Shown here piece after piece: positions 1 to 41,819 of a DNA stretch of 64,000 nt (positions within the stretch are counted from its first letter, which is position 1; each line of letters begins with the position of its first letter). Position numbers and translations under genes: made by a program. Origin of the DNA: Candidatus Sungbacteria bacterium RIFCSPLOWO2_01_FULL_47_32 (GTDB lineage Bacteria > Patescibacteriota > Minisyncoccia > Sungbacterales > GWA2-42-14); contig MHQP01000018.1 of NCBI GenBank assembly GCA_001820685.1, positions 13,881 through 77,880 on the forward strand, in the 5' to 3' direction. Below the pieces are notes generated by a model. It saw only the letters and a program-made list of their open reading frames with translations, was not told where the DNA came from and did no database searches.

Positions 1-2
1 TT

Positions 3-347
3 CTGAAATCCCATAATGTACTTGACGAGCTTGATGCTGCGTTCATTGAAGGAGCGATAGCTTCAAGCGAGCAGGAGCACATGCTTAAAGAAGTCCGGGA
101 AAAATCAAAAAAACTGGTTGCTGTGGGGTCGTGCGCTATTGTTGGGATGCCGGCAGGCCAAAGAAATACGTTTAACGAAGCACAGCAGGCGGAAATAGAT
201 TTTTTGGTAGCCCGTTTCGGCGCTCTTCCGAAGGTGCTTAAGGTATCGGATGTCGTAAAAGTTGACGCGGATGTGCCCGGATGTCCGATGGAGCCGGCAA
301 AATTTTTAGAAGTTGTGAGCACGGTGGTCAAGGAATTAAGAGGCTAA
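3..347 (+). CDS. NiFe hydrogenase small (delta) subunit, C-terminal part; the 5' end lies outside the window
   Basis: Open frame from position 3 with no stop. The translation ...IEGAIASSEQEHMLKEVREKSKKLVAVGSCAIVG...VDADVPGCPMEP matches the middle and C-terminal region of NiFe hydrogenase small subunits (GCP proximal-cluster motif). A short C-terminus without extra FeS ligands is typical of cytoplasmic group 3 enzymes. Confidence 0.7.
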   Translation: MKSHNVLDELDAAFIEGAIASSEQEHMLKEVREKSKKLVAVGSCAIVGMPAGQRNTFNEAQQAEIDFLVARFGALPKVLKVSDVVKVDADVPGCPMEPAKFLEVVSTVVKELRG

Positions 348-366
348 TAATTGTTATTGTATCATC

Positions 367-1671
367 ATGCATACCGTTGATTTAGACCTGAATATGGACC
401 GCCTTACCAAAGTTGAGGGTTCTGCCTCGCTTGAAGTAAAAATACGTAACGGCAAGGCGGAGAAGGTTCACTTTAAAATAACCGAATATAAAAGATTTTT
501 TACCCAGGCGATGCAAGGGAAGCCGCTTGTTGCGATTCCGCAGCTGCTTGCCCGCATCTGTGGCACGTGTTCGAACGCTCATCTCCTGGCAAGTATTGAG
601 GCGTGCGAAAGTGCTCTCGGGATAGAACCGACCGAGCAGACGAATATTCTTCGGACTCTTACAATGTACGGCTTGAATATCCGGGACCACGCTCTGCACC
701 TGTACCTTTTTTCAATGCCTGATATCGTCGGAAAAGACGCGTTTCTTGACTTTGACGAGAACAATGAATTCGAGCACCAGATGCTCCATGACGGGTTTCA
801 AATAAAAGCCGCGGGCAATTTTCTTGCGACTCTAGTTGCCGGACGCAGTGTTCACGCGGTTTATCCCGTTGTCGGCGGATTCATTCATTTTCCGGAAAAA
901 GCCGGGGTAGGAGAGGCGATTCAAAAACTTGAAGCGGCTCGCCCTGCCGTACTCCGCCTGATCAATGTTTTTAAAGATGCTCCCTTCCATTTTGACCGGA
1001 AAACAAATTTTATGGCGCTTGTTCCGATGGGGGGCATGTACGGGTTTATTCATGGATGCATCAACACCGGCAAGGGCGAATGCGTCCCAAAAGAGAATTT
1101 TGACGGCTTTTTGGAACGGGTCGTTGTTCCATATTCGCAGGCATCCGGCTACAAGCATAAAGAAGAATCCTATATGGTTGGAGCGCTCGCGCGCATGAAT
1201 TTGGCAAAAAATTTGCTACATCCCTTGACCAAAGAAGCGCTTGGCGCGACGCTTGACCTTTTTCCGTCAACGGATATTTTCCGAAATAACCTTGCGCAGG
1301 CGATAGAAATTCTTCACGCGCTTGACCGTTCCATTGAGTTATTGCGGGTGAACAATTTTGTTCCCGAGTCGGTAATTAAAAAGCCGCCGAGAGAGTCGGT
1401 CGGGGTTGGGGTAATCGAGGCTCCGAGGGGAACGCTCTATCATAAAATTTTTCTTGGAAGCGACGGGGTCGTCAAAAAAGGAGAAATCGTAGTGCCCACC
1501 GGGCAGAACCAAGTAAATATTGAGGAAGATATATATCATTTAGTCAACGAGCTCCTCCCCGATGCGCCGAAAGAAAAGATGCAATTCGAGATAGAAAAAC
1601 TTATCCGGGCATACGACCCATGCATGAGCTGTGCCACACATTTCCTCAAGGTTGACTGGAACGAAGCGTAG
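367..1671 (+). CDS. NiFe hydrogenase large (alpha) subunit
   Basis: N-terminal RICGTC (L1 motif) and C-terminal DPCMSCATH (L2 motif) are the Ni-binding cysteine pairs. 434 aa. Ends with a 9-aa extension after the His, consistent with processing by a maturation protease. Confidence 0.9.
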   Translation: MHTVDLDLNMDRLTKVEGSASLEVKIRNGKAEKVHFKITEYKRFFTQAMQGKPLVAIPQLLARICGTCSNAHLLASIEACESALGIEPTEQTNILRTLTMYGLNIRDHALHLYLFSMPDIVGKDAFLDFDENNEFEHQMLHDGFQIKAAGNFLATLVAGRSVHAVYPVVGGFIHFPEKAGVGEAIQKLEAARPAVLRLINVFKDAPFHFDRKTNFMALVPMGGMYGFIHGCINTGKGECVPKENFDGFLERVVVPYSQASGYKHKEESYMVGALARMNLAKNLLHPLTKEALGATLDLFPSTDIFRNNLAQAIEILHALDRSIELLRVNNFVPESVIKKPPRESVGVGVIEAPRGTLYHKIFLGSDGVVKKGEIVVPTGQNQVNIEEDIYHLVNELLPDAPKEKMQFEIEKLIRAYDPCMSCATHFLKVDWNEA

Positions 1672-2023
1672 CTGTCAAAAATTCCAGCACCGTGTCTTCA
1701 GGCATCTCCGGCGGGATGCCTATTATTTTTATTTTTTTAATCTTGCCGATTTTTTTAAGGTATTTCATGTTCGTGAGCGCGTCAAAGTCATGCATGGTTA
1801 GGCGGGGAGGCAAGGAAAACGACTCAATGTCAGAAAAAATTTTAGGCTCCTTAATATTTATTACGGTATCAATGACGGTAATATCCTCCGGTATGCTCCA
1901 GTCCTCGTTCGGGTCAATGACCTTAAACTCAATTTTCGGGAACTGTTTCGAAAGGCGGGGAAGGATTTTGAGTGGCACGGAATCCTGTAGAAGGTCGGGG
2001 TTGCCGAAAATAAGTATCGTCAT
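1646..2023 (-). CDS. hydrogenase maturation endopeptidase (HycI/HoxW-like)
   Basis: MTILIFGNPDLLQDSVPLKILPRL...VIDTVINIKEP...RLTMHDFDALTNMKYL...IKIIGIPPE aligns by eye to HycI-type proteases. The start is placed at the internal Met (2023) that gives the canonical N-terminus; the ORF could start at 2047. The 3' end overlaps the large-subunit 3' end by 26 nt, convergently. Confidence 0.65.
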   Translation of the reverse strand: MTILIFGNPDLLQDSVPLKILPRLSKQFPKIEFKVIDPNEDWSIPEDITVIDTVINIKEPKIFSDIESFSLPPRLTMHDFDALTNMKYLKKIGKIKKIKIIGIPPEMPEDTVLEFLTATLRSSQP

Positions 2024-2049
2024 GGGTTTTGCAGGCTCATCCAACATCT

Positions 2050-2841
2050 CTAAAGATTTTTTATGCAGTTGGCAAGCGCGATATGATGAAGCGTATACCG
2101 TTTTAGGGTTGCTGCCTGTTTTTTTGAGATTGCTTCGCAGGGAACTCCCCAATGAATCGTAATGATATCGCCGCTTTTTAGCTGTTCAATATCAGGCGGA
2201 GAAGAAATGTCCCGGTGAATTCTTCTGGTCTCTGGGTTTCCAAGCGCCAGTCTGCCGTTTTCATATATGAGCGGTTCGGTTTTGACCGCAAGGAACGGCC
2301 CGTCGGCGTTTAAAACCGTGCCCCAGCTTATGCGGCACGAATCCATACTCTCAAGAGTGTGGGGAATATCAAGATTCCCCGTTCGCTTCCAGATGCTTAA
2401 TACGTGGAACGAATGGTGCGGAAGCGCGCCTTTTTTTATTATGTCTTCAACCAGCTCAAATGACTGGCGCCCTACTTTCTTTTTTACATCAAGGTTATCC
2501 AGGAGATGCCGGTAAAGCCTTTTTTCTCCCGCATTCTTCAATAACTCATTTCCTATCCAATAGGCATCAACAACCCTGGGGTTGAACGGATCCCGTATGC
2601 TATTCGCGTCAGCAATAAGTTTGAGATACGGATAAAGAGTGCGAAAAGCCTGCAATAGTTTTTCGAGCCCCGGGTCCTCTGCGCCATTTTGCATGTACGC
2701 CAAAATTTCCCGATTCGCATCGGGACCGCAGTAGTGAAGGCGGTTCGGGCCAAAGGCATATTTGCTACAGCGAAGCAGACCGTCCGCTTCAGGCCGAGAA
2801 AACCAGCCCTTTTTTAATGAATTTGCTATAGTAGTATTCAA
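2050..2841 (-). CDS. hypothetical Cys-containing protein, co-oriented immediately upstream of the maturation protease; start uncertain
   Basis: 263-codon ORF with balanced composition (CSKYAFGPNRLHYCGPD, HWGVPCEAI). No family recognised. The ORF-track start at 2841 is a TTG and overlaps the EamA gene by 53 nt, so the real start may be further in. Confidence 0.5.
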   Translation of the reverse strand: MNTTIANSLKKGWFSRPEADGLLRCSKYAFGPNRLHYCGPDANREILAYMQNGAEDPGLEKLLQAFRTLYPYLKLIADANSIRDPFNPRVVDAYWIGNELLKNAGEKRLYRHLLDNLDVKKKVGRQSFELVEDIIKKGALPHHSFHVLSIWKRTGNLDIPHTLESMDSCRISWGTVLNADGPFLAVKTEPLIYENGRLALGNPETRRIHRDISSPPDIEQLKSGDIITIHWGVPCEAISKKQAATLKRYTLHHIALANCIKNL

Positions 2842-3718
2842 TTTGTTTTGTTATCAAAAGTATTCCTGCAAGCATCAGCAAAATAGACGGAACTACTTTT
2901 AATGGGAATGAGTGATTTACTATAACTCCGTCAAGAACGGCAGTAATAGGAAAGGCAAGCGCAAGGATTGAAGTTACTACCGTTGCCGGAGCTTTCTCGA
3001 GTGCCGAGTACCAGCTGAACACATATCCGAAAAGAACGATCCCGACGACAATCGCCAGCATTCCCTGATAAAGTGATGAGGGGATGATAGTTGATATTTC
3101 TCCCGTAGAGAGAAGCCAGACGACCAAAAAGAAAGAGCCAAAAAACATTCGCGCCCACGCGACGGTAAGCGCTGATACGCTACTAAGAATTTTTTTCGCG
3201 ATTATGCTTTCTATGGCCCAAAGAATTGTCGCTCCAAGCGCCATGGCCGCTCCTCTGCCGAAGGACCATGTTGCGGGGGCTCCGGAAATATAGATTGCAT
3301 AGAGCATTACAAAAAGTGCCAAAATTTGAACGATGCCAAGCCGCTCCTTAAGAAACGGATATGCTAAAATCGCGACCCAGATAAAAAGAGTCTTATGAAT
3401 AAAGGCGGCCTCGGTTGCGGATACCATAGTTAGCGATTTAAAAAATAAAAGAAACGAAACTGACCCGCCGATGCCCGCGATCACTAGGAGCTTGAACCAC
3501 TCTCCTCGTGAGAGACGGCGCAGTTCACAAACCCTCCCTAACAGCAGGAGAAGTGCCGTAAGAAAGACTGCCGCCGTTAGATTTTTTGCGGTTGTGTAGG
3601 CGGATGAATTTGCCCAAAGCCCGACCCCGAACTTATTGATAAATACGGAAAAACCGCTTATGAGCGCGGCAATAAATGCCAGTTTTATTCCGCTAAGGTA
3701 TGTTTTGTTTGCTATCAT
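2789..3718 (-). CDS. EamA/DMT-superfamily membrane transporter
   Basis: 309 aa, about 10 hydrophobic helices in two halves; typical EamA composition. Confidence 0.7.
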   Translation of the reverse strand: MIANKTYLSGIKLAFIAALISGFSVFINKFGVGLWANSSAYTTAKNLTAAVFLTALLLLLGRVCELRRLSRGEWFKLLVIAGIGGSVSFLLFFKSLTMVSATEAAFIHKTLFIWVAILAYPFLKERLGIVQILALFVMLYAIYISGAPATWSFGRGAAMALGATILWAIESIIAKKILSSVSALTVAWARMFFGSFFLVVWLLSTGEISTIIPSSLYQGMLAIVVGIVLFGYVFSWYSALEKAPATVVTSILALAFPITAVLDGVIVNHSFPLKVVPSILLMLAGILLITKQIEYYYSKFIKKGLVFSA

Positions 3719-4225: not shown

Positions 4226-6373
4226 ATGAAAAAACAACCTTTTTTAATTTTTGGATTACTTGCCGGAATGGGTTTCATGGGAAGTCTATTGTTTGCTCTT
4301 GTGTCGTTTGCGAGCCCAATTCCTATGGTTCAGGCGGAAGTAGAGCGAATTGCCGTGGGTTCGTCATGGACGACAACTGTGCAGCCGATGAGCGCGTTGA
4401 GACTGGTTGCGCGTATTACCGGAGACGTACCGGCCGGCGGGAACTATGCAATGGAAGTATACGTGAACGGCAAGCCCGTGATCTCATCTCTTTTGAATAA
4501 AGGCGCGAGTTTTACGTTTAAAGACGGCCGGACCTTTCCTTACCGGTCGGAGAACGGCTGGATGCTGTTTTACAGCCAGAATTTTTCCGTGAATAATACC
4601 GCAGCGAGCGGGGGGTATCAGGTACTCACTGATCCCGGACAGGCTTATTTATACGAATGGAACATATCATCTCTTGTCGGCGGCGCGTCGAGCATGAAAC
4701 TGGAAATTAAAAATAACGGCAAAACAGCCGGAAGGCAGATCCTCGTTCAGGTCTTGAGCAGATATCCGATCGCCGAATTGGGAAATTGCGGCGACGAAAA
4801 TGCTTGCAGGGATTATTGCGGAAAACAGGCAAATTATGCCGCATGCTCGGATTACGGCGCGAAAAATAACATAATTTCTCCGGAAGACGCAGAGAAGGCC
4901 AAGAAGTTCGCCGATGTTTTGAACGGAGCGGGTCCCGGCGGATGCAAAGACGAGGCTTCCTGCCGAAGTTATTGCGAGGGCGTTGCTCACTTGGAAGAAT
5001 GTATTTCTTTCGCTCAAAAACATAATTTTGCAAGCGGGGACCAGTTGGCTGAAGCGCAAAAAGTTTTGAGCGCGCTCAAAAAAGGCGCGACACTTCCGGG
5101 CGGCTGCACGGATAAAAATTCCTGTGAATCATATTGCAAGGACTCGGCCCATGTCGAAGAATGCCTTTCGTTCGCAAAAAAAGCCGGTTTTATCTCCGAC
5201 CAAGAGGCCGCTGAAGCGGAAAAGGTCCTGCCATTCATAAAAAGCGGGCAGACACCGGGTGGATGCACTACCAAAGCGGATTGCCAGAAATTCTGCGATG
5301 ATTCAAGCAACAACACGGAATGCGTCAATTTTGCCGAGAAGGCGGGATTCATGAGCAAGGAAGACGCAACTATGGCGAGGATTACCGGCGGAAAAGGCCC
5401 GGGCGGGTGCAAGTCAAAGGATTCCTGCGAAACATACTGCAACGCAAAAACGCACCAGCAAGAATGTTTTGACTTTGCCCAGAAATATAATCTAATTCCA
5501 CCCGATAAGCTGAAAGAGATGAGGGAGGGCATGGGCCGGCTTCGTTCCGGTTTGGACCAGATGCCGCAGGAAGCGATTTCGTGTCTTAAGGACAATCTTG
5601 GGCAGGATATTGTCACGAAAATTCAGGACGGGTCTTTTACTCCCGGACCGCAAACCGGGGATACCATCAAGGGCTGTTTCGATAAGGTCATGCCCCAACT
5701 TCAAGCCAAATTAAAGCAGGGATTGGATCAGGCGACACCGGCCGCATTGCAGTGCTTGCAAAACGGCCTCGGTGAAGACGGGCTTCAAAAAATTAAAAAT
5801 GGCGAAGCGCCAACCCCGGAAAACGGAGATGTTCTCAAAAAATGCTTCGGAGCAATGAAATCGGAAGGGATGAACAAGCTTAAGAACGGTTTAAGTAAGA
5901 TGCCACCGGAAGTGAGATCTTGCATAACTGAAAAACTCGGCGCGGACACAGTGCAAAAAATACAAAGCGGCGAGGATGTGAATATCGGCCCCGAAATCGG
6001 ATCGGCCATGCAGGAATGTGCGAAGGCAGGTGTTGCGGCGATGCAGCAGAAAATGGATGAAGGATTAAAAAGCGCCCCGCCGGAAATCAAAAGTTGCGTA
6101 GAATCAAAACTTGGCAGCATGAGCGCAAAGATGCAAAGCGGAGAACTAAGCGGCGAGGCGGACGTTCAGAAATTGATACAAGAATGCGTTTCTAACTTTA
6201 AGCCGGCAGGAGGCATGCCGCCGCCAGGAGCCGGCGGAGAAACCGAAGGTAACCCGCCCGCGGGATTTGCGCCAACTCCGGAGATTTGCTCTCAATTCCG
6301 GTCCGTTCCTTCGTGTTCCTATGTACCCGCCGGCACAGCCCAAGACATGTGCAAAAAGTGCAAAACGGAATAG
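4226..6373 (+). CDS. secreted modular cysteine-repeat protein of unknown family
   Basis: 715 aa. Signal/TM at the N-terminus, an ~185-aa N-terminal domain, then five ~50-aa 4-Cys modules (GPGGC-x5-C-x3-C-x8-C-x2-FA-x-K-x-NF) and four ~40-aa 2-Cys modules (P-x-E-x2-SC-x3-LG-x-D-x3-KIQ-x-G...C). Cys-rich C-terminus. Confidence 0.8.
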   Translation: MKKQPFLIFGLLAGMGFMGSLLFALVSFASPIPMVQAEVERIAVGSSWTTTVQPMSALRLVARITGDVPAGGNYAMEVYVNGKPVISSLLNKGASFTFKDGRTFPYRSENGWMLFYSQNFSVNNTAASGGYQVLTDPGQAYLYEWNISSLVGGASSMKLEIKNNGKTAGRQILVQVLSRYPIAELGNCGDENACRDYCGKQANYAACSDYGAKNNIISPEDAEKAKKFADVLNGAGPGGCKDEASCRSYCEGVAHLEECISFAQKHNFASGDQLAEAQKVLSALKKGATLPGGCTDKNSCESYCKDSAHVEECLSFAKKAGFISDQEAAEAEKVLPFIKSGQTPGGCTTKADCQKFCDDSSNNTECVNFAEKAGFMSKEDATMARITGGKGPGGCKSKDSCETYCNAKTHQQECFDFAQKYNLIPPDKLKEMREGMGRLRSGLDQMPQEAISCLKDNLGQDIVTKIQDGSFTPGPQTGDTIKGCFDKVMPQLQAKLKQGLDQATPAALQCLQNGLGEDGLQKIKNGEAPTPENGDVLKKCFGAMKSEGMNKLKNGLSKMPPEVRSCITEKLGADTVQKIQSGEDVNIGPEIGSAMQECAKAGVAAMQQKMDEGLKSAPPEIKSCVESKLGSMSAKMQSGELSGEADVQKLIQECVSNFKPAGGMPPPGAGGETEGNPPAGFAPTPEICSQFRSVPSCSYVPAGTAQDMCKKCKTE
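4787..5498 (+). repeat. five tandem 4-Cys protein modules (coding repeats) inside the 4226-6373 CDS
   Basis: aa 188-425: CGDENACRDYC...C; GGCKDEASCRSYCEGVAHLEECISFAQKHNF; GGCTDKNSCESYCKDSAHVEECLSFAKKAGF; GGCTTKADCQKFCDDSSNNTECVNFAEKAGF; GGCKSKDSCETYCNAKTHQQECFDFAQKYNL. Confidence 0.75.
5561..6188 (+). repeat. four tandem 2-Cys protein modules (coding repeats) inside the 4226-6373 CDS
   Basis: MPQEAISCLKDNLGQDIVTKIQDG...C; ATPAALQCLQNGLGEDGLQKIKNG...C; MPPEVRSCITEKLGADTVQKIQSG...C; APPEIKSCVESKLGSMSAKMQSG...C. Confidence 0.7.
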
Positions 6374-6477: not shown

Positions 6478-6565
6478 CCCGCCATAATTCGCCGTGAAGA
6501 GGTTTCCCGGCGTGCTTTTTTTGCGAAAAAATGATATGGTTTTTGTGTATTCGCGTTTTACAATT

Positions 6566-8080
6566 ATGCATAACATTCCAATTCGAAATTTAACCATAGC
6601 TGATTTTATTGGCATGAGCGGACCAAAAACCCGCCTGTATCTTGAAAAGTCAGCTGGTTCAAAAATCAATCGCGTCGCCTCATCCCTTCAAAAGCTTATC
6701 GGCGCCGGTAAAATTATTTACGGCGTAAATACCGGGGTGGGGGACCTGTGCGATGTTACTCTTCAGGGAAAGGATTTGTACCGCCTTCAAGAAAATATTA
6801 TTTTAAGCCACGCGTGCGGTTCCTCTCCATATCTCGAAGAACGCGTAAGCCGCGGGGCTTTATTTTTGATTATTAACTCGCGCTCTAAGGGTTTTTCCGG
6901 AGTTACGGCGGAACTTATTCGAAAACTCGTTATTCTTTTTAATAACAATGTTTCCCCTCTGCTTCCCGTCAGGGGGTCTTTGGGAGCGAGCGGCGATCTT
7001 ATCCCAATGGCTCATTTAGGGCTTTTGCTTCTTGGACAAGGTAGCGCCATGATGAACGGCAAAATTGTTCCGACAAAAAAAATATTGCACCGTCTTCGCA
7101 TTTCCAATCACGTGTTACAGCCCAAGGAAGCCTTGAGCCTGATAAACGGAACCGATGTTACGACCGCGCAGGCCGCGTTTACCCTGGAAAAGGCTAAAAA
7201 ACTTTTATTTTTGTCAGCGCGTCTGACAGCAGTCATCTTTGAGGTTCTGGGCGCTTCAAAGAAAAGTCTTGACTCGGACTTGCATTCCCTGAAGCCGCAT
7301 GTGGGGCAAGTAGCCATTGCTCGGCTTCTCAGAAAGTTTCTTCATGGAAGCAGACGTTGCGATCGGCCGAATAAGAAAATTCAGGCTTCGTATGTAATTC
7401 GCTGCGCGCCGCAGATTGACGGAGCTATTTGGGAGCAAATTGAAAAAGCAAGGGACGTTGCGGAGGTTGAATTGAATTCCGTAACCGATAACCCGCTATT
7501 TTTCCCATCCGGAGCAGGAGTGAGAGTAGCCTCCGGAGGAAATTTTCATGCCCAGAATTTGGCTTTTTCGCTCGATTCCGCCGGAATCGCTCTTGCCGCA
7601 TTCGGAAAAGTTGTTGAGAGAAGAATTGAAAGATTGCTGAACTCCTCGCTATCCGGCTTGCCGCCGTTTCTTGCGCATGACTTCGGATTGAATTCCGGCC
7701 TCATGATTCCGCAGTATCTTGTTGCCGCGCTTGTTGCCGAAAATTTGGTTTTAGCTCATCCGGCAAGCATTCAATCTCTGCCGGTATCTGCCAACCAGGA
7801 AGATTTCGTATCCATGGCCATGACTGCTGCAACAAAAGCTGAAAAAATTCTTGAAAATTGTGAAAAAATATTGGCCGTGGAGATTTTAACAGCTATTCAG
7901 GCGATGGATATGGCGAAAGATGCCAATGGACGCGTTTTTTCCGACTTTAGTCCTGCAGCAAAAACTCTTCACCGGAAAACGAGGGCTATTGTTTCGGAAC
8001 TCAAAAACGACAGGTGGCTGAGCAAAGATATCGAAGTGTTAACGGAATCAATTCAAAACGGCTATTTTCATTATGACTAA
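6566..8080 (+). CDS. hutH: histidine ammonia-lyase
   Basis: GSLGASGDL MIO-forming Ala-Ser-Gly motif and GVNTGVG. Start chosen at the Met (6566) giving about 504 aa; the ORF extends to 6494. Confidence 0.9.
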   Translation: MHNIPIRNLTIADFIGMSGPKTRLYLEKSAGSKINRVASSLQKLIGAGKIIYGVNTGVGDLCDVTLQGKDLYRLQENIILSHACGSSPYLEERVSRGALFLIINSRSKGFSGVTAELIRKLVILFNNNVSPLLPVRGSLGASGDLIPMAHLGLLLLGQGSAMMNGKIVPTKKILHRLRISNHVLQPKEALSLINGTDVTTAQAAFTLEKAKKLLFLSARLTAVIFEVLGASKKSLDSDLHSLKPHVGQVAIARLLRKFLHGSRRCDRPNKKIQASYVIRCAPQIDGAIWEQIEKARDVAEVELNSVTDNPLFFPSGAGVRVASGGNFHAQNLAFSLDSAGIALAAFGKVVERRIERLLNSSLSGLPPFLAHDFGLNSGLMIPQYLVAALVAENLVLAHPASIQSLPVSANQEDFVSMAMTAATKAEKILENCEKILAVEILTAIQAMDMAKDANGRVFSDFSPAAKTLHRKTRAIVSELKNDRWLSKDIEVLTESIQNGYFHYD

Positions 8081-9041
8081 ATTATTGAAGAAATCCACCG
8101 CGGCCATTTATGAGAAGCAGTCTGATTTGGACGACCTGCGCCTTAAAAATATTGTTGCGAATTGGGATGGGAGAACAAAAATTGATATCGGAATAATCGG
8201 AATACCTTTTGATTATGGTGTGCAACTTTCAGGAGGACGGCCGGGGGCCGCACGAGCGCCTGACACCATCCGCAGCCAGCTTAAGCGATACGGGACGGCA
8301 TGCAATAGTGAAAAGAAGGCGGACCTGTCTAAATTAAAAATTGCCGACCTCGGAAATATGAAAGTTTTTTTCCGGGACAGTTTGCGGACCTATGCGGCTG
8401 TTATCGGCGTAATGGCAAAAGCTTATGATGGATTGGTTGACACGATTATCGCGCTTGGAGGAGGAAACGATATTACATATGCAACGGTTTCGGCACTCCA
8501 AAGGAGCAGAAAGCAAACTCTCGGAGGAATGAGTATTGATGCGCATTTTGACGTACGAAGTACGCGGGGCGGAAAGATCACAAGCGGAACCCCCTATCGC
8601 CGGCTGATTGAGGATAAGATTCTACCCGGAAATAATTTTTGGGAAGCAGGAATTCAGGGACAGGTCAATTCAGTTATTCATGAGCGCTGGCTTAAAAAGC
8701 AGGGTGCGAAAATAGTTTCTCTCTCCGAGATAAGAGAAAAAGGGGTTATTGCCGAATTTAAAAGCTTTGAAAAGGCAACTCGGCGCTGTAAGATGATTTT
8801 CGTCAGCATCGATATTGATTCTGTCGCTCAAGCATTCGCCCCGGGCTCAAGCGCCCCCAGCCCCGACGGCCTTTTTCCGGAAGACATTCTGCAGTTCGCG
8901 TATTTAGCCGGACTTAATCAAAAAGTAAAACTTTTTGAAGTTGTTGAAGTTAATCCGCGTTATGATGTTGATAATAGAACGAGCAGGCTGGCTACAAATA
9001 TTGTTATCCAATTTTTAACAGGCCGCTCACTAATAAAATAA
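8073..9041 (+). CDS. hutG: formimidoylglutamase (arginase/ureohydrolase family)
   Basis: Ureohydrolase motifs (SIDAHFD, SIDIDSV, GGGND-like). Sits between hutH and hutU; ATG overlaps the hutH stop. Confidence 0.75.
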
Positions 9042-9043
9042 CT

Positions 9044-10780
9044 ATGAATTCTTGTTCATGTGATATTAAAGAGGAATTGGAAAAATACGGGCGGCCGATG
9101 CACATGGCTGAACGACCCGCCTTTCCCATCAAAGCTAGCACGGGGCCCGAAAAAGAATGCAAAACCTGGGACACAGAGGCGGCACTGCGAATGCTCTATA
9201 ATAATCTCGACCCGGATGTGGCGCTGAAACCGGAAGAGCTTATTGTTTACGGAGGTGCCGGGCGCGCGGCGCGTAACTGGCATGAATTCAATAAGATAGT
9301 TTCAGCGCTCAAAGACCTTCGCGAAGACGAAACTCTATGCATTCAATCCGGAAAACCGGTTTATGTCGCTCCGACCCATAAAGACGCTCCGCGGGTAATT
9401 CTTGCTAATTCCAATATTGTGCCAAGGTGGGGTACACAGGAAATTTTCAATGAATACGACCGCTTGGGCCTTATGATGTACGGGCAGATGACCGCCGGTT
9501 CCTGGATTTACATCGGGACACAGGGAATTTTGCAGGGGACATACGAAACCTTTAGGGCGTGCGCTAAAACCAACTTTGGCCAGGATTCGCTGGCGGGAAA
9601 ATTTGTTTTGTCCGCCGGCATGGGATCAATGTCCGGAGCGCAGCCTTTGGCGGTAACCATGAATGAGGGGGTTTTACTTGATGTGGAAGTAAGAAAGGAG
9701 CAGATTGAAAAAAAAGTGCGCGAAGGATACTGCGATATGTTGTCGGAAAATTTGGACGAAGCGCTGCGGCTTGTAAAGGAAGCGGTTGATATGCGTATTC
9801 CTCGTTCCATCGGGCTTGTCGGGAACGCGGCGGAAGTTCATACGGAATTGTTACAGCGGGGGATAATTCCGGATATTGTAACCGACCAAACGCCTGCGCA
9901 TGACATTTTAAGCTATGTTCCGACCGGAGACCTTAACGAGCTTGACCTGTTACGAGTAAAGAACCCGAAGGAATATGAGCGAAGAGCCCGCGAATCAGTC
10001 GTTATGCATGTTTCGGCAATGCTTGAGATGCAAAAGCGGGGAGCGATTGTTTTTGATTACGGAAATAATCTTAGAATTCAGGCGGAGGAAGGGGGGCTTG
10101 TCGTAAAAAACGAACAAGGAGAATTTTTGTATCCCGGTTTTGTACCTGCCTATATCCGGCCTCTTTTTTGCGAAGGAAAAGGTCCGTTTCGCTGGGCATT
10201 TTTGTCCGGCAAGACGGAGGACCAGCGCCTTGTTGATGATCTGCTTTTAAAGACGTTCCCGGAAAACATCGGGCTGAAGAGGTGGGTCGAGAAAGTTCAG
10301 AAAAAAGTTCCGGTTATCGGATTGCCAACGCGAATTTGCTGGCTTGGATACGGAGAACGGGCAAAGTTCGGTTTAGCGTTAAACGACCTTATCAGCTCGG
10401 GCAGGGTTTCGGCTCCGGTTGTTATCGGACGCGACCACCTTGATTCCGGGTCGGTGGCTAGTCCGTATCGCGAAACCGAGGGAATGAAGGACGGGTCTGA
10501 CGCGATTGCTGACTGGCCCCTGCTTAATTTTGCGCTTAACACCGCCAACGGCGCTTCTTGGGTCTCTTTTCATCACGGCGGAGGCGTTGGGATAGGAAAT
10601 GCATTGCATGCAGGTATGGTGATTGTGGCGGACGGAACCAAAGAAAAAACTAAGCGTCTTGAGCGGGTTTTGACGGTTGACCCGGGAATAGGAGTTGCGC
10701 GCCACGCGGACAGCGGTGAAGAAAGAGCTATTGAAACCGCAAAAGAAAAAAATATTAAAATACCAGGCCTGACATGCTGA
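9044..10780 (+). CDS. hutU: urocanate hydratase
   Basis: 578 aa with [10 protein letters not shown] (NAD-binding) and typical urocanase length. The N-terminal 19 aa are uncertain (alternative Met at 9101). Confidence 0.9.
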
Positions 10781-12039
10781 TCATCAAAAACGCACATGAG
10801 CTTGTAACATGCCGCTCATTAGAAAGCGGTCCGAACGCCGGCAAAAATTTCAGCACCTGTTCCGTTATTAAAAATGGGGCTCTTGTTGTTGACGGAGAAA
10901 AAATTGTTGCCGTCGGAAAAACAGAAAATATTCTGGCACGGTTTAAGAAAAAATGGGCTAGCCGTATTTTTGACGCTTCTGGAAAAATTATTCTGCCGGG
11001 CTTTATTGACAGCCATACCCATTTGGTTTTTGCCGGCTCCAGAGCCGAGGAATATCGATTGAAGCTTAAAGGACAAAGCTACAAATCACTTCATAAAAAA
11101 AAAGGCGGAATTCATTTTACGGTGGGAGAAACCAGGAGGGCGAGCGAAGATGAACTTTTTTTTCAGGCGAAGGATACTCTTGAGCGAATGTTCCGTTTGG
11201 GAACGACTACTGTTGAGATAAAAAGCGGCTATGGCCTGACGCCGGAGGACGAGCTTAAAATTTTGCGGGTTATTAAGCGGTTGAAAAAGACGGCCAAACA
11301 AGATATTGTTGCCACATTTTTAGGAGCGCATACAGTGCCGTTAGAATATCAAAATAATCGTTCTGCCTATCTGAAATTAATTATTGAAAAAATGCTTCCG
11401 GTGGTGTGGGCGAAGGACCTGGCTGAATACTGCGATGTTTTTTGCGACCCGCTCGGTTTTACCGCCGGAGAGACAACGGCAATTTTTTCTGAAGCAAGAA
11501 GATTGGGATTTAAGTTGCGCATTCATGCCGAACAAACCGCTCATTTCGGCGGTGCTGCCGTAGCGGCGCGATATAAGGCGGCAAGTGCTGACCACTGCGA
11601 TTTTTTGAACGATTCCGATATCGGATACTTAAAAAAGAGCCGAATACCAGTCGTCCTTCTTCCCGGGGTGCTTTTGCATCTTATGGAGTGGAAAAAAATT
11701 CCGTATTTTCAGGAAACAGTAAAAAAAATAAAAAAAGCCGATGTGGCTTTAGCTTTGGCCACCGATTATAATCCTGGTAGTTCTCCTGTTATATCCATGA
11801 AGCTTGTCGCGGATCTTGCCTTGCGTTTTTTCCGCATGGATTATCAGGAATGCTTGAATGCGGTAACTATTAACGCCGCGTATGCCTTAAACCGCGCGTC
11901 AGAAGTGGGGAGCATTGAACCCGGCAAGCAGGCCGATATTCTTATAGTTGACGCTTTGAGCATGAAGGACTATTTTCACGGGCCCGGTGACGGCAAGATT
12001 GATTATGTAATAAAAAAGGGTTTGATGAATAAAATATAG
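10774..12039 (+). CDS. hutI: imidazolonepropionase
   Basis: Amidohydrolase with [16 protein letters not shown]; about 420 aa; overlaps the hutU stop by 7 nt. Confidence 0.9.
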
Positions 12040-38378: not shown

Positions 38379-41300
38379 ATGATGAAAAAAGTTCCAAAGT
38401 TTTTAAAGAAAGCTTCAAAATCTATTCTTATATTTATGCTCGCGGCGGGCTGGGGTTTTTTTGGCTGGCCGCAATTTTCAGGTTTTCCGCAAAAAATTCA
38501 CGAGGCTAAAGCCAGCCCGGGAGCGCGCGCCAAAACCGTAGAGATTCTTGCCGGGCAGTATGCCGGAGACGGCCTGGGCGGCCAGAATTCAAATACCAAT
38601 CAGTCATTCGCCGAATCAAACTTCAATCTCGCGGAATCAAGCGTTTCGGTAAAAAACGCTTTCGTGGTTGTTGAAATGCAGTTAAACGGCGCGGCGGACC
38701 GTGGCAATGCAACCGGTCACCTCCTCTCCTTTGACGCCTGCGCCAACCCCTGCACTGCCGACCCTTGGGCTGGCTCTGGCAGAGTGGAAGACAATCAGGG
38801 TTCAACCATACTGCAGTATCAGGATATAACCGGCGCCATGTATGTTCGGCTATTGATTGATGTGACCAAAGAAACCCAGCTTGCGGCATATACAGGTAGT
38901 GATAGCACCATGGATTTTATGGTTGGCTATCGGGTTAATAACGGCGCTACCGCCGCCACGATTGATTCTGCCAAAGCCAAGCTCTTTATCACCTACACCT
39001 ATGACGACACTTCAGCAAGCATCACGAATACTGTTATATATCCTTTAGAATCAACCGCTTCGGGCGATCAAGGGACAAGGCGCGCGTCCCAAGCAAGCGC
39101 CTGCACCAAAGGCACCAACTGTCCGACCTTTACCTACAACATGGACACCGCGGAATTTTCGGAAAAAATTTCCCAGTGGTTTGAGGTCGGCGGGTTCAAT
39201 GACCTAAACAGCGGCACCGATGTTACCCGCAATATCAATATCGAGGGCACGGACGTGGATTCTTCCACTTTCTATCATGAAGCGGCGCAGGCTTCTGGTC
39301 AGGGCAACTGGTCGCAGGCCTGGTGGTCAGGCGTTTCCGGCTTTGCTGAAAACACGGCCCAAACTCTGGAGCACTACTTTGCCGCCGGCACCCAGTATCT
39401 TATCGGTGGCGAGGTTTTTGAGACATATACCGCTTCTTCAAGCGCGGCAACCAAAACCCGGACAATTTCTTTTCCCATCGGTGTTATTACCAATGACATC
39501 CTCTCTACCGGAGTGGACTATTCCGCCACCACCACGGTTTATTTTGCCGAATCTGGAGTTTCTATCAAAAAGGCCTGGTTGAGAATTTTGGAAACGGGTG
39601 ACGACGCAACCGGCGCCCACACATTTTCCGTCAAAACCGAAGTTGGCGCGAACGCCCAATCCGCCGCCTCGGTCTATAATCAGGACACGCCCGCTGTCAT
39701 GATTATTATGACAAACCCAATTATTCATGTCATTCCTTCTTCCGATTACACGGAATTAGCGGCGGCAACCGCGTCTTCGGGCAAAGATGTTGGAGTGGCA
39801 GTGCAGTCAAACAGTGCGGAAATTGACGGCGTTTCCGCCGAGCTCATGATTACTTACACCTATACCGGAGAGGCAAACGGATATTTAACTTCTTTGGCTT
39901 CATTCGCGGGCCAGACCGCGACTGCCGGAGTTAGCCAGAGCGAAACATTGTCCAATATGGCGACCTCCACCCTGCCGGAAACTACCGGCGCTAAAACCAT
40001 GCGAGCCGCGGCTTTGAGAGCAAGTTACGCGGCATCAGAGTCAACCGCGGCCATGCTCCAAAGCGATAGTTTTACGGTTGATACTAATTTGTCCACCGGC
40101 TCTCCCACCTGTTCCAATGCGTACGAGAGCGCCACTGACCTTGCCGATGCGTATATGGAGTTTTATAAGCTTGTAACCAGCGCGATGAATACCACTGACG
40201 GACAGGAATACAGCGTGTGTTACACCAACGACGGCGCGGGGGACGCCCAAACCGGCGCCAAAATGAACGGCTGGCTAATTTACACTTATCAATGGGACGC
40301 GCCACCAAATATTTTTGTCTCTAGTGCAACACCAACGCTTGATGTTCGTGTTCCGCCTAGCAGTGCTACTACGACTGTTCCTGCAATAAAAATACTGGCG
40401 ACCGCCGCAAGCCAGATTACAACGTCAGGTATTCGGATAAATATAGACCCGAATTTCCCCCTTCTGTGGGATGGGGCGTGTTCGGGAAGCACTACCCCGG
40501 CGTTCTCTGGAAGTGCTGCCGGTAAAATTACCGCGGCAAATTCAGGATTTATCTGTTCGAGCGGTTCTGCGCGAACCTTCTATATAGATGTAGACACCAC
40601 ATTCGATTCCGGAGATGATATCATTATTACGAGCGGGGTGTCATGGGGCGCTACTTCAACGGCATTTGCCGCTTCAACGACACTATCGCTTTCTATAGAC
40701 GGCGGGGTAACCAGAGCAAAAACCGCGACATCGTCAATCGCAGTAAAAGGTATCTTGGCGGTTTCAGACCATTCCGCGGGACAAATTACCGACCAATTCG
40801 CCGACATGCTTGAAACCGAAACATCAACATCATCCGAACTTTTCAGATTCAAACTTGCGCCAAATGGCGAATCCGCCTCTACAACGCTAAAGCTGACATA
40901 TACAACTTCCGGCATTGACGACGGGGATATTGCTTCAGGCGATATCTACGTTGATACTGACGCCAACGGCAGAGTAAACGGAGCGGAAGCAACAGCCGGA
41001 TTTAACTGTAGTCCGCCTTCAGGCGGGACAATCACGTGCAACGGCACAACGACCGTAAGTGCCGCGACAAATTATATCTATAAAGCGACAGTCTCAAACC
41101 TTGCAACCGGAGATTCTATAACATTTGACACAATTTCAACTTCCAACGTGGTTGGTATCGGAGCAACAAGCAAAACATATACTTCGCGTCTCACCACAAC
41201 GGCAAGCATGAATTCGGCAACGCATCAGAAATCTAAAATTATTGCTTTTTCATCAGATTATTCTCAAAACTTTCTCTTAGACGGATCTCTTGCCGCTATG

Positions 41301-41819
41301 GCCCCTATCACCATACGCGTGTATGCAAACCAAAAGGCGACAACATCTACCGGATTTCGCATAAAAATTCCGACAACTCTTGATTTTACATGGGATATAA
41401 CTGATCAATCAGCCTCCACCGGAGGAAACGCGGCAAATAAAGTTGATGCGGTCGTCGTGTTCCCGGATACAAAGACTCTCTACATTACCATTAACACCGA
41501 TTTTATCGCGGGAGACGAAGTTCAGATCGGAGGTCTTTCATTTAAAAATTTTAGCAGCATATCAGGTCCGGATTCCTTACAGCTTTACACCGGAGGCGCG
41601 GATGACGCAGGTGTTGACGCAATAGACAATAAAATCAAGCAAGTCGTAGGCGTTATGGGAACCGGAGCCGCCACTGCGACTGACGCGGCACCCTTTGCAA
41701 TTCCTCTCGGCGGAGGGCTTCAAAATTCAGGGGTTGGAACTCCTGTTGAGCCTCCGCCATTTGAACAGCCACAGGGGGGCGGCACCGACCAGGGAGGCGG
41801 AACGACTCCGTCCGAGTAG
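38379..41819 (+). CDS. giant secreted/cell-surface protein (1146 aa), Thr/Ser/Ala/Gly-rich
   Basis: N-terminal signal/TM and a beta-rich low-complexity composition. No catalytic motifs recognised. Preceded by a 540-bp AT-rich non-coding leader. Confidence 0.7.
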   Translation: MMKKVPKFLKKASKSILIFMLAAGWGFFGWPQFSGFPQKIHEAKASPGARAKTVEILAGQYAGDGLGGQNSNTNQSFAESNFNLAESSVSVKNAFVVVEMQLNGAADRGNATGHLLSFDACANPCTADPWAGSGRVEDNQGSTILQYQDITGAMYVRLLIDVTKETQLAAYTGSDSTMDFMVGYRVNNGATAATIDSAKAKLFITYTYDDTSASITNTVIYPLESTASGDQGTRRASQASACTKGTNCPTFTYNMDTAEFSEKISQWFEVGGFNDLNSGTDVTRNINIEGTDVDSSTFYHEAAQASGQGNWSQAWWSGVSGFAENTAQTLEHYFAAGTQYLIGGEVFETYTASSSAATKTRTISFPIGVITNDILSTGVDYSATTTVYFAESGVSIKKAWLRILETGDDATGAHTFSVKTEVGANAQSAASVYNQDTPAVMIIMTNPIIHVIPSSDYTELAAATASSGKDVGVAVQSNSAEIDGVSAELMITYTYTGEANGYLTSLASFAGQTATAGVSQSETLSNMATSTLPETTGAKTMRAAALRASYAASESTAAMLQSDSFTVDTNLSTGSPTCSNAYESATDLADAYMEFYKLVTSAMNTTDGQEYSVCYTNDGAGDAQTGAKMNGWLIYTYQWDAPPNIFVSSATPTLDVRVPPSSATTTVPAIKILATAASQITTSGIRINIDPNFPLLWDGACSGSTTPAFSGSAAGKITAANSGFICSSGSARTFYIDVDTTFDSGDDIIITSGVSWGATSTAFAASTTLSLSIDGGVTRAKTATSSIAVKGILAVSDHSAGQITDQFADMLETETSTSSELFRFKLAPNGESASTTLKLTYTTSGIDDGDIASGDIYVDTDANGRVNGAEATAGFNCSPPSGGTITCNGTTTVSAATNYIYKATVSNLATGDSITFDTISTSNVVGIGATSKTYTSRLTTTASMNSATHQKSKIIAFSSDYSQNFLLDGSLAAMAPITIRVYANQKATTSTGFRIKIPTTLDFTWDITDQSASTGGNAANKVDAVVVFPDTKTLYITINTDFIAGDEVQIGGLSFKNFSSISGPDSLQLYTGGADDAGVDAIDNKIKQVVGVMGTGAATATDAAPFAIPLGGGLQNSGVGTPVEPPPFEQPQGGGTDQGGGTTPSE

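Follow-up and report, generated by a model that had tools for sequence, protein, structure and literature searches.

The assembly of all [NiFe] hydrogenases is currently attributed to six Hyp proteins and a protease. At one end of the 64,000-nucleotide stretch of Candidatus Sungbacteria DNA analyzed here (the window), a [NiFe] hydrogenase is encoded beside a putative maturation protease and a protein of 263 aa, which raises the question of what part this additional protein plays in the making of the enzyme. The answer bears on an issue left by Jaffe et al. 2020 (PMC7304191), namely whether "unknown genes" support the reduced hyd2 hydrogenases of the CPR.

The hydrogenase is encoded on the plus strand. 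Its small-subunit gene starts before the window, so that only the 3′ part is included (positions 1–347; Pfam Oxidored_q6, E 5e-18), and is followed by the gene for a [NiFe]-hydrogenase large subunit of 434 aa (367–1671, plus strand; Pfam NiFeSe_Hases, E 2.5e-28). Both CxxC metal-binding motifs can be read in the large subunit, the N-terminal ARICGTCSNAH (RICGTC) and the C-terminal YDPCMSCATH (DPCMSC), and it shares 54–75% identity with the large subunits of 143 related loci. The small subunit is of the truncated type, with the proximal-cluster domain only, and ends ∼20 aa past the last proximal-cluster Cys (GCP); full-length homologues measure 162–165 aa, and a mean of 164 aa is given for the hyd2 small subunit (Jaffe et al. 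2020, PMC7304191). The best NCBIfam models for the large subunit are the alpha subunits of group 3b sulfhydrogenases, ShyA (240 bits) and HydA (216 bits), with both scores far under the respective cut-offs of 700 and 880 bits. Because these are the closest models and the small subunit is short, we assign the enzyme to the published CPR-specific, 3b-related hyd2 clade (Jaffe et al. 2020, PMC7304191); the first-pass annotation, made from the sequence alone, had called a group 3 enzyme, and this is borne out. In other genomes, genes for a 2-oxoacid:ferredoxin oxidoreductase and an ADP-forming acetyl-CoA synthetase adjoin the hydrogenase cluster; no gene for either of these, nor for a ferredoxin, NifU, or a Pyr_redox_2 protein, was found in the window. 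The idea that the hydrogenase is the main redox valve of the organism, also put forward at first pass, is hinted at only by these neighbors (oxidoreductase and acetyl-CoA synthetase) in other genomes.

Convergent with the large-subunit gene is the gene of the protease on the minus strand. Its longest open reading frame (1646–2152, 168 aa) is too long, and another ATG is found at 2047; because the homologues, with the N-terminus MxIxVFGN, have only ∼124 aa, the sequence points to the ATG at 2023, 26 nt past the stop codon of the 263-aa gene, as the most likely start, which gives a short protein of 125 aa (1646–2023, minus strand). The top Foldseek match of its AlphaFold model (pLDDT 84.6) in the PDB is HybD (1cfz; E 2.6e-6, TM 0.70), and HycI (2i8l, 2e85) is among the further top matches. 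Residues D14, D52, and H78, invariant in 34 family members, align to E16/D62/H93 of HybD and D16/D62/H90 of HycI; the metal-binding triad we take to be Glu/Asp16, Asp62, and His93 in HybD numbering. Pfam HycI (PF01750) is matched individually by 24 of the 34 relatives (E ≤ 0.01; best 5.3e-6). The copy in the window does not match PF01750 and has only a weak NCBIfam match (NiFeSe_H2_mat, E 0.006), the family profile retrieved neither HybD nor HycI from the PDB sequences, and hhalign with one HybD sequence as the target gave no significant result. As these profile and hhalign searches failed, it is the fold, the triad, and the relatives' Pfam matches that identify the product as a predicted maturation endopeptidase of the HycI/HybD type. 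The HycI-like protease of the first-pass annotation is therefore upheld for the family, with the qualification that the window's own copy fails against the HycI profile.

The presumed substrate of this protease is found directly opposite. The large subunit ends in a tail of nine residues, FLKVDWNEA (1642–1668, plus strand, followed by the stop codon at 1669–1671, both read directly from the sequence), which the maturation protease would be expected to remove, after the His of DPCMSCATH; the tails of related large subunits comprise 9–16 aa and begin with FLK or FLT. The protease gene has its stop codon at 1646–1648 on the minus strand, and the two convergent genes therefore overlap at their 3′ ends by 26 nt (1646–1671), wholly inside the tail-coding end of the large-subunit gene, with the final codons of the protease antisense to the tail that it presumably cuts off. 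This overlap is not a local accident: Among 122 pairs of large-subunit and protease genes on opposite strands in related loci, 55 show it, most frequently with 26 nt (16 loci), then with 20, 32, and 14 nt, and in one relative frame throughout. The positions of the open reading frames and the length of the overlap were all confirmed as originally read.

Directly upstream of the protease gene lies that of the 263-aa protein (2050–2841, minus strand, TTG start), which includes CSKYAFGPNRLHYCGPD and HWGVPCEAI. It had been described as having no recognizable family, which is wrong: Its residues 19–258 match Pfam PF19927 (DUF6390) with an E value of 6.4e-58 and 196.5 bits, the cut-off being 25. Relatives number 1131 close and 1312 representative ones (clusters at 50% identity); the family is common in the Patescibacteria, with one occurrence in an assembly labeled Micrarchaeota. 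A homologue search with a short DUF6390 paralogue gave nine matches, none of them annotated, and our literature search returned no mention of DUF6390 or PF19927.

The C-terminal part of DUF6390 (residues 166–263; 2053–2346, minus strand) is modeled as an OB-fold beta barrel followed by a C-terminal helix, as in HypC/HupF. The relation to HypC is detectable only by profile–profile comparison with a diverse profile: One built from 110 diverse representatives aligned to four HypC sequences with an E value of 1.3e-5, a score that none of 200 shuffles reached and that was higher than those of other OB folds. This alignment pairs Cys169 (codon 2335–2337) with Cys2 of HypC, and His230 (codon 2152–2154), in the motif xHWG, with His51 in VHVG; Cys169 and His230 are each kept in 109 of the 110 representatives. 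In HypC, C2 is the essential N-terminal residue (PMC12134894), and H51 of the Escherichia coli protein is conserved and functionally important (PMC9002611). A Pfam scan of the window's protein gave no match to HupF_HypC (PF01455) at E ≤ 0.1, the DUF6390 profile retrieved no HypC from the PDB sequences at E ≤ 10 (chance matches only), and hhalign of a low-diversity profile against the single E. coli HypC returned a probability of 12%. Sequence comparison and model together indicate that DUF6390 includes a copy of the HypC iron-chaperone domain that had not been reported before, and because of this domain we consider it very probable that the protein is a new factor in hydrogenase maturation. 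It should be noted that the defining cysteine of HypC is N-terminal, whereas its counterpart in DUF6390 is internal (residue 169 of 263), and the chemistry may therefore differ. No HypC-like protein with an N-terminal extension was described in the literature searched, and the identity of "fam002" of Jaffe et al., some members of which are HypC-like, is not given in their supplements.

This extension is a helical region (residues ∼20–165; 2347–2784, minus strand), delimited from alignments and the model, with conserved residues of its own: Cys38 in YCGP, and His143 and His146 in PHHSFH, present in 108, 109, and 99 of the 110 representatives, respectively. The model is helical over residues 57–150 and of low confidence over residues 1–45, which include Cys38, and among the matches listed none in the PDB fell outside the C-terminal barrel. 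The two motifs recall CGxHxH and PxHVS of HypD; a relationship with HypD was rejected because the region is predicted to be all-helical and gave no match.

The operon was only partly described at first pass: The protease and 263-aa genes stand, and a third gene was missed. This gene opens the operon and overlaps the start of DUF6390 with its final 53 nt; it encodes a permease of 309 aa of the EamA family (drug/metabolite transporter superfamily; 2789–3718, minus strand; Pfam EamA, two domains, E 2e-28). In 46 of 71 loci, and likewise in each of the four distant loci inspected, DUF6390 is directly preceded by EamA, and a fused EamA+DUF6390 open reading frame is known (P0087). The three genes, EamA–DUF6390–protease, adjoin a hyd2 hydrogenase in ∼90% of well-flanked loci. 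Counted from DUF6390, this hydrogenase is found in 32 of the 34 loci that have 8 kb or more to either side, and the protease in 71 of the 75 with at least 600 nt downstream; in 64 of these 75 it lies no more than 1.6 kb away on the DUF6390 strand, with a gap of at most 150 nt in 50. With the hydrogenase as the starting point, DUF6390 occurs in 37 and the protease in 44 of 47 loci. No hydrogenase was found within 10 kb at two well-flanked DUF6390 loci (L060 and L076). The first-pass annotation had proposed the 263-aa protein as a candidate maturation factor and suggested its co-occurrence with hydrogenase or protease genes as a check; the co-occurrence is what we observe, and with the HypC-like domain it strengthens that proposal. 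The linkage persists at 30–38% identity, in many CPR lineages and with several types of hydrogenase. In distant relatives, the module adjoins [NiFe] hydrogenases of other kinds, accompanied by hypA and hypC: One locus (L086) has, on one strand and tightly packed, Hdr-like genes, MvhD, the small and large subunits, hycI, hypA, hypC, EamA, and DUF6390, and three more (L085, L087, and L161) resemble it.

To place DUF6390 relative to the known machinery, the surroundings of the loci were searched for hyp genes. Neither HypA–F and HycI of E. coli nor HypA and HypC of L086 and L087 gave a tblastn match in the window and 82 loci (1.28 Mb), and the canonical HypC N-terminus MC[LIV]x[IVL]P is likewise not found in the 1.28 Mb around CPR DUF6390 loci. 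Within 10 kb of CPR DUF6390 loci, none of hypA–F was detected (∼117 loci for hypA and hypB). A canonical HypC is encoded beside DUF6390 in three distant loci (L086, L087, and L161), and in those organisms DUF6390 can therefore not simply be equated with HypC. One CPR hyd2 locus (L107/L168) has canonical hypCDEF, beside the protease gene; neither DUF6390 nor EamA is found in its 16.8 kb. Discussion of hyp genes in the CPR was not found in our literature search.

Given what the fold, the conserved residues, the linkage of the genes, and the identity of the protease show, we consider it probable that the EamA–DUF6390–protease operon is a maturation module for the adjacent hyd2 hydrogenase, with DUF6390 acting as a two-domain metallochaperone. 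In the most likely mechanism, Cys169 and His230, together with Cys38, His143, and His146, would hold a metal center; the HypC-like domain would dock on the large-subunit precursor and hand this center over; and the protease encoded directly downstream would then cleave behind the His of DPCMSCATH and so free the large subunit of its 9-aa tail. As to the cargo, our analysis tentatively favors an iron moiety, as in HypC/HypCD, over nickel; that it is nickel passed on from the permease seems doubtful.

Hydrogenase clusters often include a nickel permease, for example, HoxN or HupE, and it is possible, if on balance unlikely, that EamA imports nickel or a nickel complex and that DUF6390 is a cytoplasmic nickel chaperone that receives this cargo from the permease and loads the large subunit with it in place of HypA/HypB. 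The overlapping and occasionally fused permease and DUF6390 genes, the His-rich PHHSFH with the conserved Cys, and the lack of hypA and hypB within 10 kb of the ∼117 CPR loci would suit such a route. However, HypC as the closest relative of the DUF6390 domain handles iron rather than nickel, hypA is present in the same operon at L086, and the literature search returned no EamA-family nickel importer, no link of EamA with hydrogenase, and no EamA precedent in hydrogenase maturation; we know of no nickel importer in this family.

That DUF6390 is the organism's HypC orthologue with an added domain, and works together with canonical HypD, HypE, and HypF from other parts of the genome, is rather improbable. 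The HypC-like domain with its Cys and His kept, the missing canonical HypC in the 1.28 Mb around CPR loci, and the CPR genome that uses HypCDEF with its hyd2 enzyme are in line with this explanation, but the internal position of the Cys, the loci encoding HypC and DUF6390 side by side, and the finding that the sole hyd2 locus with HypCDEF is also the one with neither DUF6390 nor EamA in 16.8 kb argue against it. More speculatively, and with lower probability still, EamA and DUF6390 might constitute a minimal alternative maturation route in most hyd2 Patescibacteria and some DPANN-labeled assemblies, in place of the HypCD scaffold and possibly also of HypE/F or HypA/B, with the N-terminal domain supplying the Cys/His ligands that come from HypD in the HypCD complex; as a sub-variant, cleavage just before Cys169 would expose an N-terminal cysteine as in HypC. 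Such a route is hinted at because no hypA–F occur within 10 kb of CPR DUF6390 loci and because both EamA and DUF6390 are missing from the vicinity of hypCDEF at the only hyd2 locus that carries these genes. Finally, we regard it as very improbable that DUF6390 is a mere partner of the EamA transporter, brought close to hydrogenases by gene packing in small genomes: EamA–DUF6390 is indeed the tightest pair and L060 and L076 have no hydrogenase nearby, but the linkage to hydrogenase and protease is kept over many CPR lineages and the Micrarchaeota-labeled assembly, extends to a hydrogenase of another type, Mvh/Hdr, that has hypA and hypC beside it, and is accompanied by a HypC-like domain with HypC's functional residues.

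What the analysis brings out is a widespread family of larger proteins into which a HypC-like chaperone domain is built, functional Cys and His included, and which is coupled genetically to a membrane permease and a miniaturized HycI protease. If the operon is a maturation module as we propose, DUF6390 gains a testable function, as a candidate seventh player, or a substitute, in the assembly of the [NiFe] cofactor, and use of its internal Cys would challenge ideas of why HypC needs a free N-terminus.

Each component has a known counterpart. The canonical group 3b sulfhydrogenase (Pyrococcus furiosus HydABDG) is a heterotetramer in which a small subunit of ∼250 aa with three clusters is joined by beta (Fe–S) and gamma (FAD/NAD(P)) subunits; the window's enzyme resembles it in the large subunit, closest to ShyA/HydA, whereas its hyd2-type relatives lack the beta and gamma subunits and the medial/distal cluster domain and instead have a Pyr_redox_2 protein and a single-cluster ferredoxin encoded ahead of the small subunit, the start of the window's own operon lying outside the window. 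With hyd2 (Jaffe et al. 2020) it shares the small subunit cut to ∼164 aa and, in its relatives, the PF07992 flavoprotein encoded upstream. The protease is like HycI/HybD/HoxW (PF01750) in its modeled fold, its three conserved metal ligands, and the C-terminal tail that follows DPCxxCxxH in the neighboring large subunit; it differs in its length (∼125 aa vs. 156–164 aa, with loops lost), in falling below Pfam detection, and in a gene that is convergent with, and overlaps the 3′ end of, that of its substrate. The permease can be likened to the nickel permeases HoxN/NiCoT and HupE/UreJ, which we compare from general knowledge, by the position of its gene amid hydrogenase maturation genes alone, as it belongs to the EamA family of the drug/metabolite transporter superfamily. 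DUF6390, lastly, is like HypC/HybG/HupF (PF01455) in the near-invariant Cys and His aligned with C2 and H51 and in the location of its gene in hydrogenase and maturation clusters. Unlike these proteins of 70–90 aa, it comprises 240–260 aa, is not matched by the PF01455 model, has its Cys169 internal and hence without a free N-terminal amine, carries an insertion of ∼17 residues in the predicted barrel and an extra helical N-terminal domain with its own conserved Cys and His, and is paired with a membrane permease.

At the 5' end of the window the plus strand carries the 3' part of a hydrogenase small-subunit gene (ending at 347; Pfam Oxidored_q6, E 5e-18) and the gene for a 434-aa large subunit (367-1671; NiFeSe_Hases, E 2.5e-28), which has the motif ARICGTC near its N-terminus and ends with DPCMSCATH and a 9-aa tail, FLKVDWNEA. 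The minus strand carries a protease-like ORF (stop codon at 1646-1648, start at ATG 2023 as indicated by its homologues) and, upstream of it, the gene for a 263-aa protein (2050-2841). These ORFs were found where the first-pass annotation had placed them; its gene list was incomplete, as it did not mention the EamA-family permease (309 aa; 2789-3718, minus strand) encoded upstream of the 263-aa ORF. The last 53 nt of the EamA gene overlap the TTG at 2841, the only canonical start available to the 263-aa ORF.

With its stop codon at 1646-1648 on the minus strand, the protease gene converges with the large-subunit gene and shares 26 nt with it (1646-1671), inside the tail codons (1642-1668) and the stop codon, confirming the overlap recorded at first pass. 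The two genes are on opposite strands in 122 of 160 related loci and their 3' ends overlap in 55 of these 122; an overlap of 26 nt is the most common (16 loci), and 20, 32, and 14 nt come next. Because the lengths differ by multiples of 6, the relative frame is kept, and the conserved overlap thus means that the large-subunit tail, predicted to be removable, is encoded antisense to the last codons of the protease itself.

Further along the plus strand, the window contains a complete histidine-utilisation operon (6494-12039), a catabolic pathway in a type of genome generally described as metabolically minimal: a histidine ammonia lyase (aromatic amino acid lyase; 6494-8080), an arginase-family formiminoglutamase-like gene (8073-9041), urocanase (9044-10780), and an imidazolonepropionase-like amidohydrolase (10774-12039). 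A 715-aa protein (4226-6373, plus strand) has no Pfam match; it combines a hydrophobic segment at the N-terminus with roughly six Cys-rich repeats (GPGGC..xxxCxxYCxxxxHxxEC). A 1146-aa ORF (38379-41819, plus strand) has no Pfam family at E <= 1e-5.

The 263-aa protein, previously described as having no recognisable family, belongs to DUF6390, with a Pfam PF19927 match spanning residues 19-258 (E 6.4e-58); the earlier statement was therefore wrong, though the family is one without known function. No paper mentioning DUF6390 was found in a literature search. The family is sizeable and strongly conserved: we found 1131 close relatives, about 60% identical, in many lineages of the Patescibacteria (CPR), and an exhaustive HMMER search gave 1312 representative clusters at an E-value limit of 1e-3, of which 874 remain at 1e-10, with one member among the matches labelled Micrarchaeota. 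Two longer ORFs also carry the domain: P0087 (424 aa) is a single ORF call with an EamA domain and DUF6390, and P0250 (563 aa) matches DUF6390 at residues 321-563, after a 320-aa N-terminal part; they may represent genuine fusions or result from gene calls that ran through overlapping frames.

The C-terminal part of DUF6390 contains C169-RISWGxV and, 60 residues on, GDIxxIH230WG, resembling the HypC pattern MCxGxPGxV ... GxxVLVHxG. In the AlphaFold model (pLDDT 71), a low-confidence region (1-45) and a helical domain (57-150) precede a well-predicted beta barrel (172-238) and a C-terminal helix (240-259). Simple sequence searches failed to link DUF6390 to HypC; when a profile built from 110 diverse C-domains of the family was aligned by hhalign with four HypC/HybG sequences, the probability was 81% (E 1.3e-5), and Cys169 paired with HypC Cys2 and His230 with His51. 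The relationship is supported by the lower scores of the controls: shuffling the columns of the HypC alignment gives scores of 9.6 +/- 2.1 (maximum 19.5; 0/200 reach the observed 30.5), and the OB folds CspA, IF1, and S17 score 13-19. Of the 110 representatives, 109 have Cys169 and 109 have His230, and in the N-domain Cys38 is found in 108, His143 in 109, and His146 in 99. In HypC, C2 is an essential iron ligand and H51 a conserved, functionally important neighbour (PMC12134894, PMC9002611).

To assess linkage, one set of loci was centred on DUF6390 (80 species-representative genomes, all Patescibacteria-type assemblies) and another on the hydrogenase (80 metagenome loci, found from the large subunit). 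Of the 75 DUF6390 loci that extend 600 nt or more downstream, 71 carry the protease; in 64 it is encoded no more than 1.6 kb away in the same orientation (median gap 29 nt). EamA is the gene immediately upstream of DUF6390 in 46/71. The first-pass annotation had called for a co-occurrence check, and the large subunit of hyd2, the CPR hydrogenase clade discussed below, is found in 32 of the 34 DUF6390 loci flanked by at least 8 kb on each side. Seen from the hydrogenase, loci with at least 2.5 kb downstream encode the protease in 44 and DUF6390 in 37 of 47 cases, and among 16 well-flanked loci the protease is found in 14 and DUF6390 in 12, with a shorter DUF6390-like protein instead in two more. 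The linkage persists at 27-38% identity: at three such loci (L085, L087, L161) EamA-DUF6390 is accompanied by the short protease and by hydrogenase subunits of 157-162 aa (small) and 425 aa (large), with a canonical 73-aa HypC adjoining at L087 and a HypC match at L161. At a further locus (L086), Hdr-like genes, MvhD, a small subunit of 332 aa, and a large subunit of 495 aa are tightly packed on one strand, and the same-strand run continues with hycI, hypA, hypC, EamA, and DUF6390. EamA-DUF6390 therefore travels with more than one [NiFe] hydrogenase type and with recognised maturation genes. Together with the HypC-like domain, this linkage supports, with the corrections given here, the original interpretation of the DUF6390 gene as a candidate hydrogenase maturation or accessory factor.

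The shorter protein, a Cys/His protein of about 145 aa, is encoded within the operon beside DUF6390 or the protease in 10/80 DUF6390-centred and 14/80 hydrogenase-centred loci (e.g., L032:9464-9904(+), L067:11152-11601(-), L078:11271-11705(-), L131:11370-11810, and L134:10358-10750, among others); the first 22 kb of the window contain no copy. It has no Pfam family, aligns with DUF6390 over its whole length (hhalign probability 77%, E 2e-5), with DUF6390 residues ~97-165 absent, and retains the internal G-x-C-x-V cysteine and V-x-x-H histidine; it looks like a short DUF6390 paralogue.

The protease had been called HycI-like at first pass, with failure to match HycI/HoxW profiles named as the refuting result; the window copy has no Pfam HycI match and only a weak NCBIfam match (E 0.006), which read strictly would refute the call. 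Evidence from the family overturns this verdict: the homologues are about 124 aa long, PF01750 is matched by 24 of 34 relatives scanned singly (best E 5.3e-6), and the invariant D14, D52, and H78 line up with the metal-binding residues of HybD (E16, D62, H93) and of HycI. The AlphaFold model (pLDDT 84.6) has its best PDB matches in HybD (1cfz, E 2.6e-6, TM 0.70) and HycI (2i8l, 2e85). The protein is a miniaturised HycI/HybD-type endopeptidase, a divergent member of an already known family.

The data themselves establish what the domain and the protease are, which residues are conserved, how the operon is built, and how the genes are linked. Beyond this, we infer that DUF6390 would use Cys169 and His230, together with Cys38, His143, and His146, to bind a metal centre, and that its HypC-like domain would dock on the large-subunit precursor and deliver this centre, after which the co-encoded protease would cut the large subunit after His425. 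By analogy with HypC/HypCD, we tentatively favour an iron moiety as the cargo, in which case the N-domain ligands may take the role of HypD's Cys41 and histidines. Nickel handed on by the EamA permease is the alternative and a somewhat less likely cargo; this route would account for a transporter translationally coupled to DUF6390. That EamA-DUF6390 serves transport only, unrelated to the hydrogenase, is very improbable.

No hypA-F homologues were found in the 64-kb window and 82 DUF6390-centred loci (1.28 Mb in total). A single locus of the 160 has hypDEF nearby (L107:981-9956, the same as L168; JBBTUF010000018.1, Patescibacteria GCA_038063855.1): canonical hypC-hypD-hypE and hypF lie directly beside the hyd2 genes (ferredoxin, Pyr_redox_2, small and large subunits, short protease), which shows that the standard machinery is able to mature hyd2 in a CPR bacterium. 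Neither EamA nor DUF6390 occurs within the 16.8 kb seen there. The module of EamA, DUF6390, and the protease is relevant to hydrogenase maturation and CPR biology, and would be more so if it proves to replace Hyp proteins.

The hydrogenase itself has already been described. Jaffe et al. (2020, PMC7304191) defined hyd2 as a CPR-specific, 3b-related clade of "function uncertain", in which the small subunit is truncated (164 aa on average), beta and gamma subunits are lacking, and a PF07992 protein is encoded nearby. The window hydrogenase belongs to this clade: its small subunit ends about 20 residues past the last proximal-cluster Cys (full-length homologues, 162-165 aa), and operons in related genomes comprise, in order, a single-4Fe-4S ferredoxin, a 410-aa Pyr_redox_2 flavoprotein, and the small and large subunits; beta and gamma subunits of the sulfhydrogenase are absent. 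The close relatives of the window proteins are all from Patescibacteria assemblies. In other genomes the genes flanking hyd2 include 2-oxoacid:ferredoxin oxidoreductase at 21 loci, ADP-forming acetyl-CoA synthetase at 13, and at 26 a single-cluster ferredoxin, a NifU-like protein, or both, which fits hydrogen release during fermentation; examples are L012:10940-15477, L014:12972-19239, and L031:14415-19001. None of these flanking genes is present in the window. The assignment to group 3 made at first pass holds insofar as the top curated models of the large subunit are group 3b sulfhydrogenase alpha subunits (ShyA, 240 bits; HydA, 216 bits), scores far under the cut-offs of 700 and 880 bits, respectively; the enzyme is 3b-related but departs from the subunit definition of group 3b.

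Jaffe et al. also noted an unnamed "fam002", some members of which are HypC-like, near CPR hydrogenases (PMC7304191); this may or may not be the DUF6390 family. What is new is that DUF6390 can be assigned as a fusion containing a HypC domain whose cysteine is internal; the protein is coupled to an EamA permease and shows a consistent link to [NiFe] hydrogenases. The N-terminal position of the cysteine is a defining feature of HypC, whereas the cysteine of DUF6390 is internal; for this reason we term the domain HypC-like and refrain from classing DUF6390 as a HypC.
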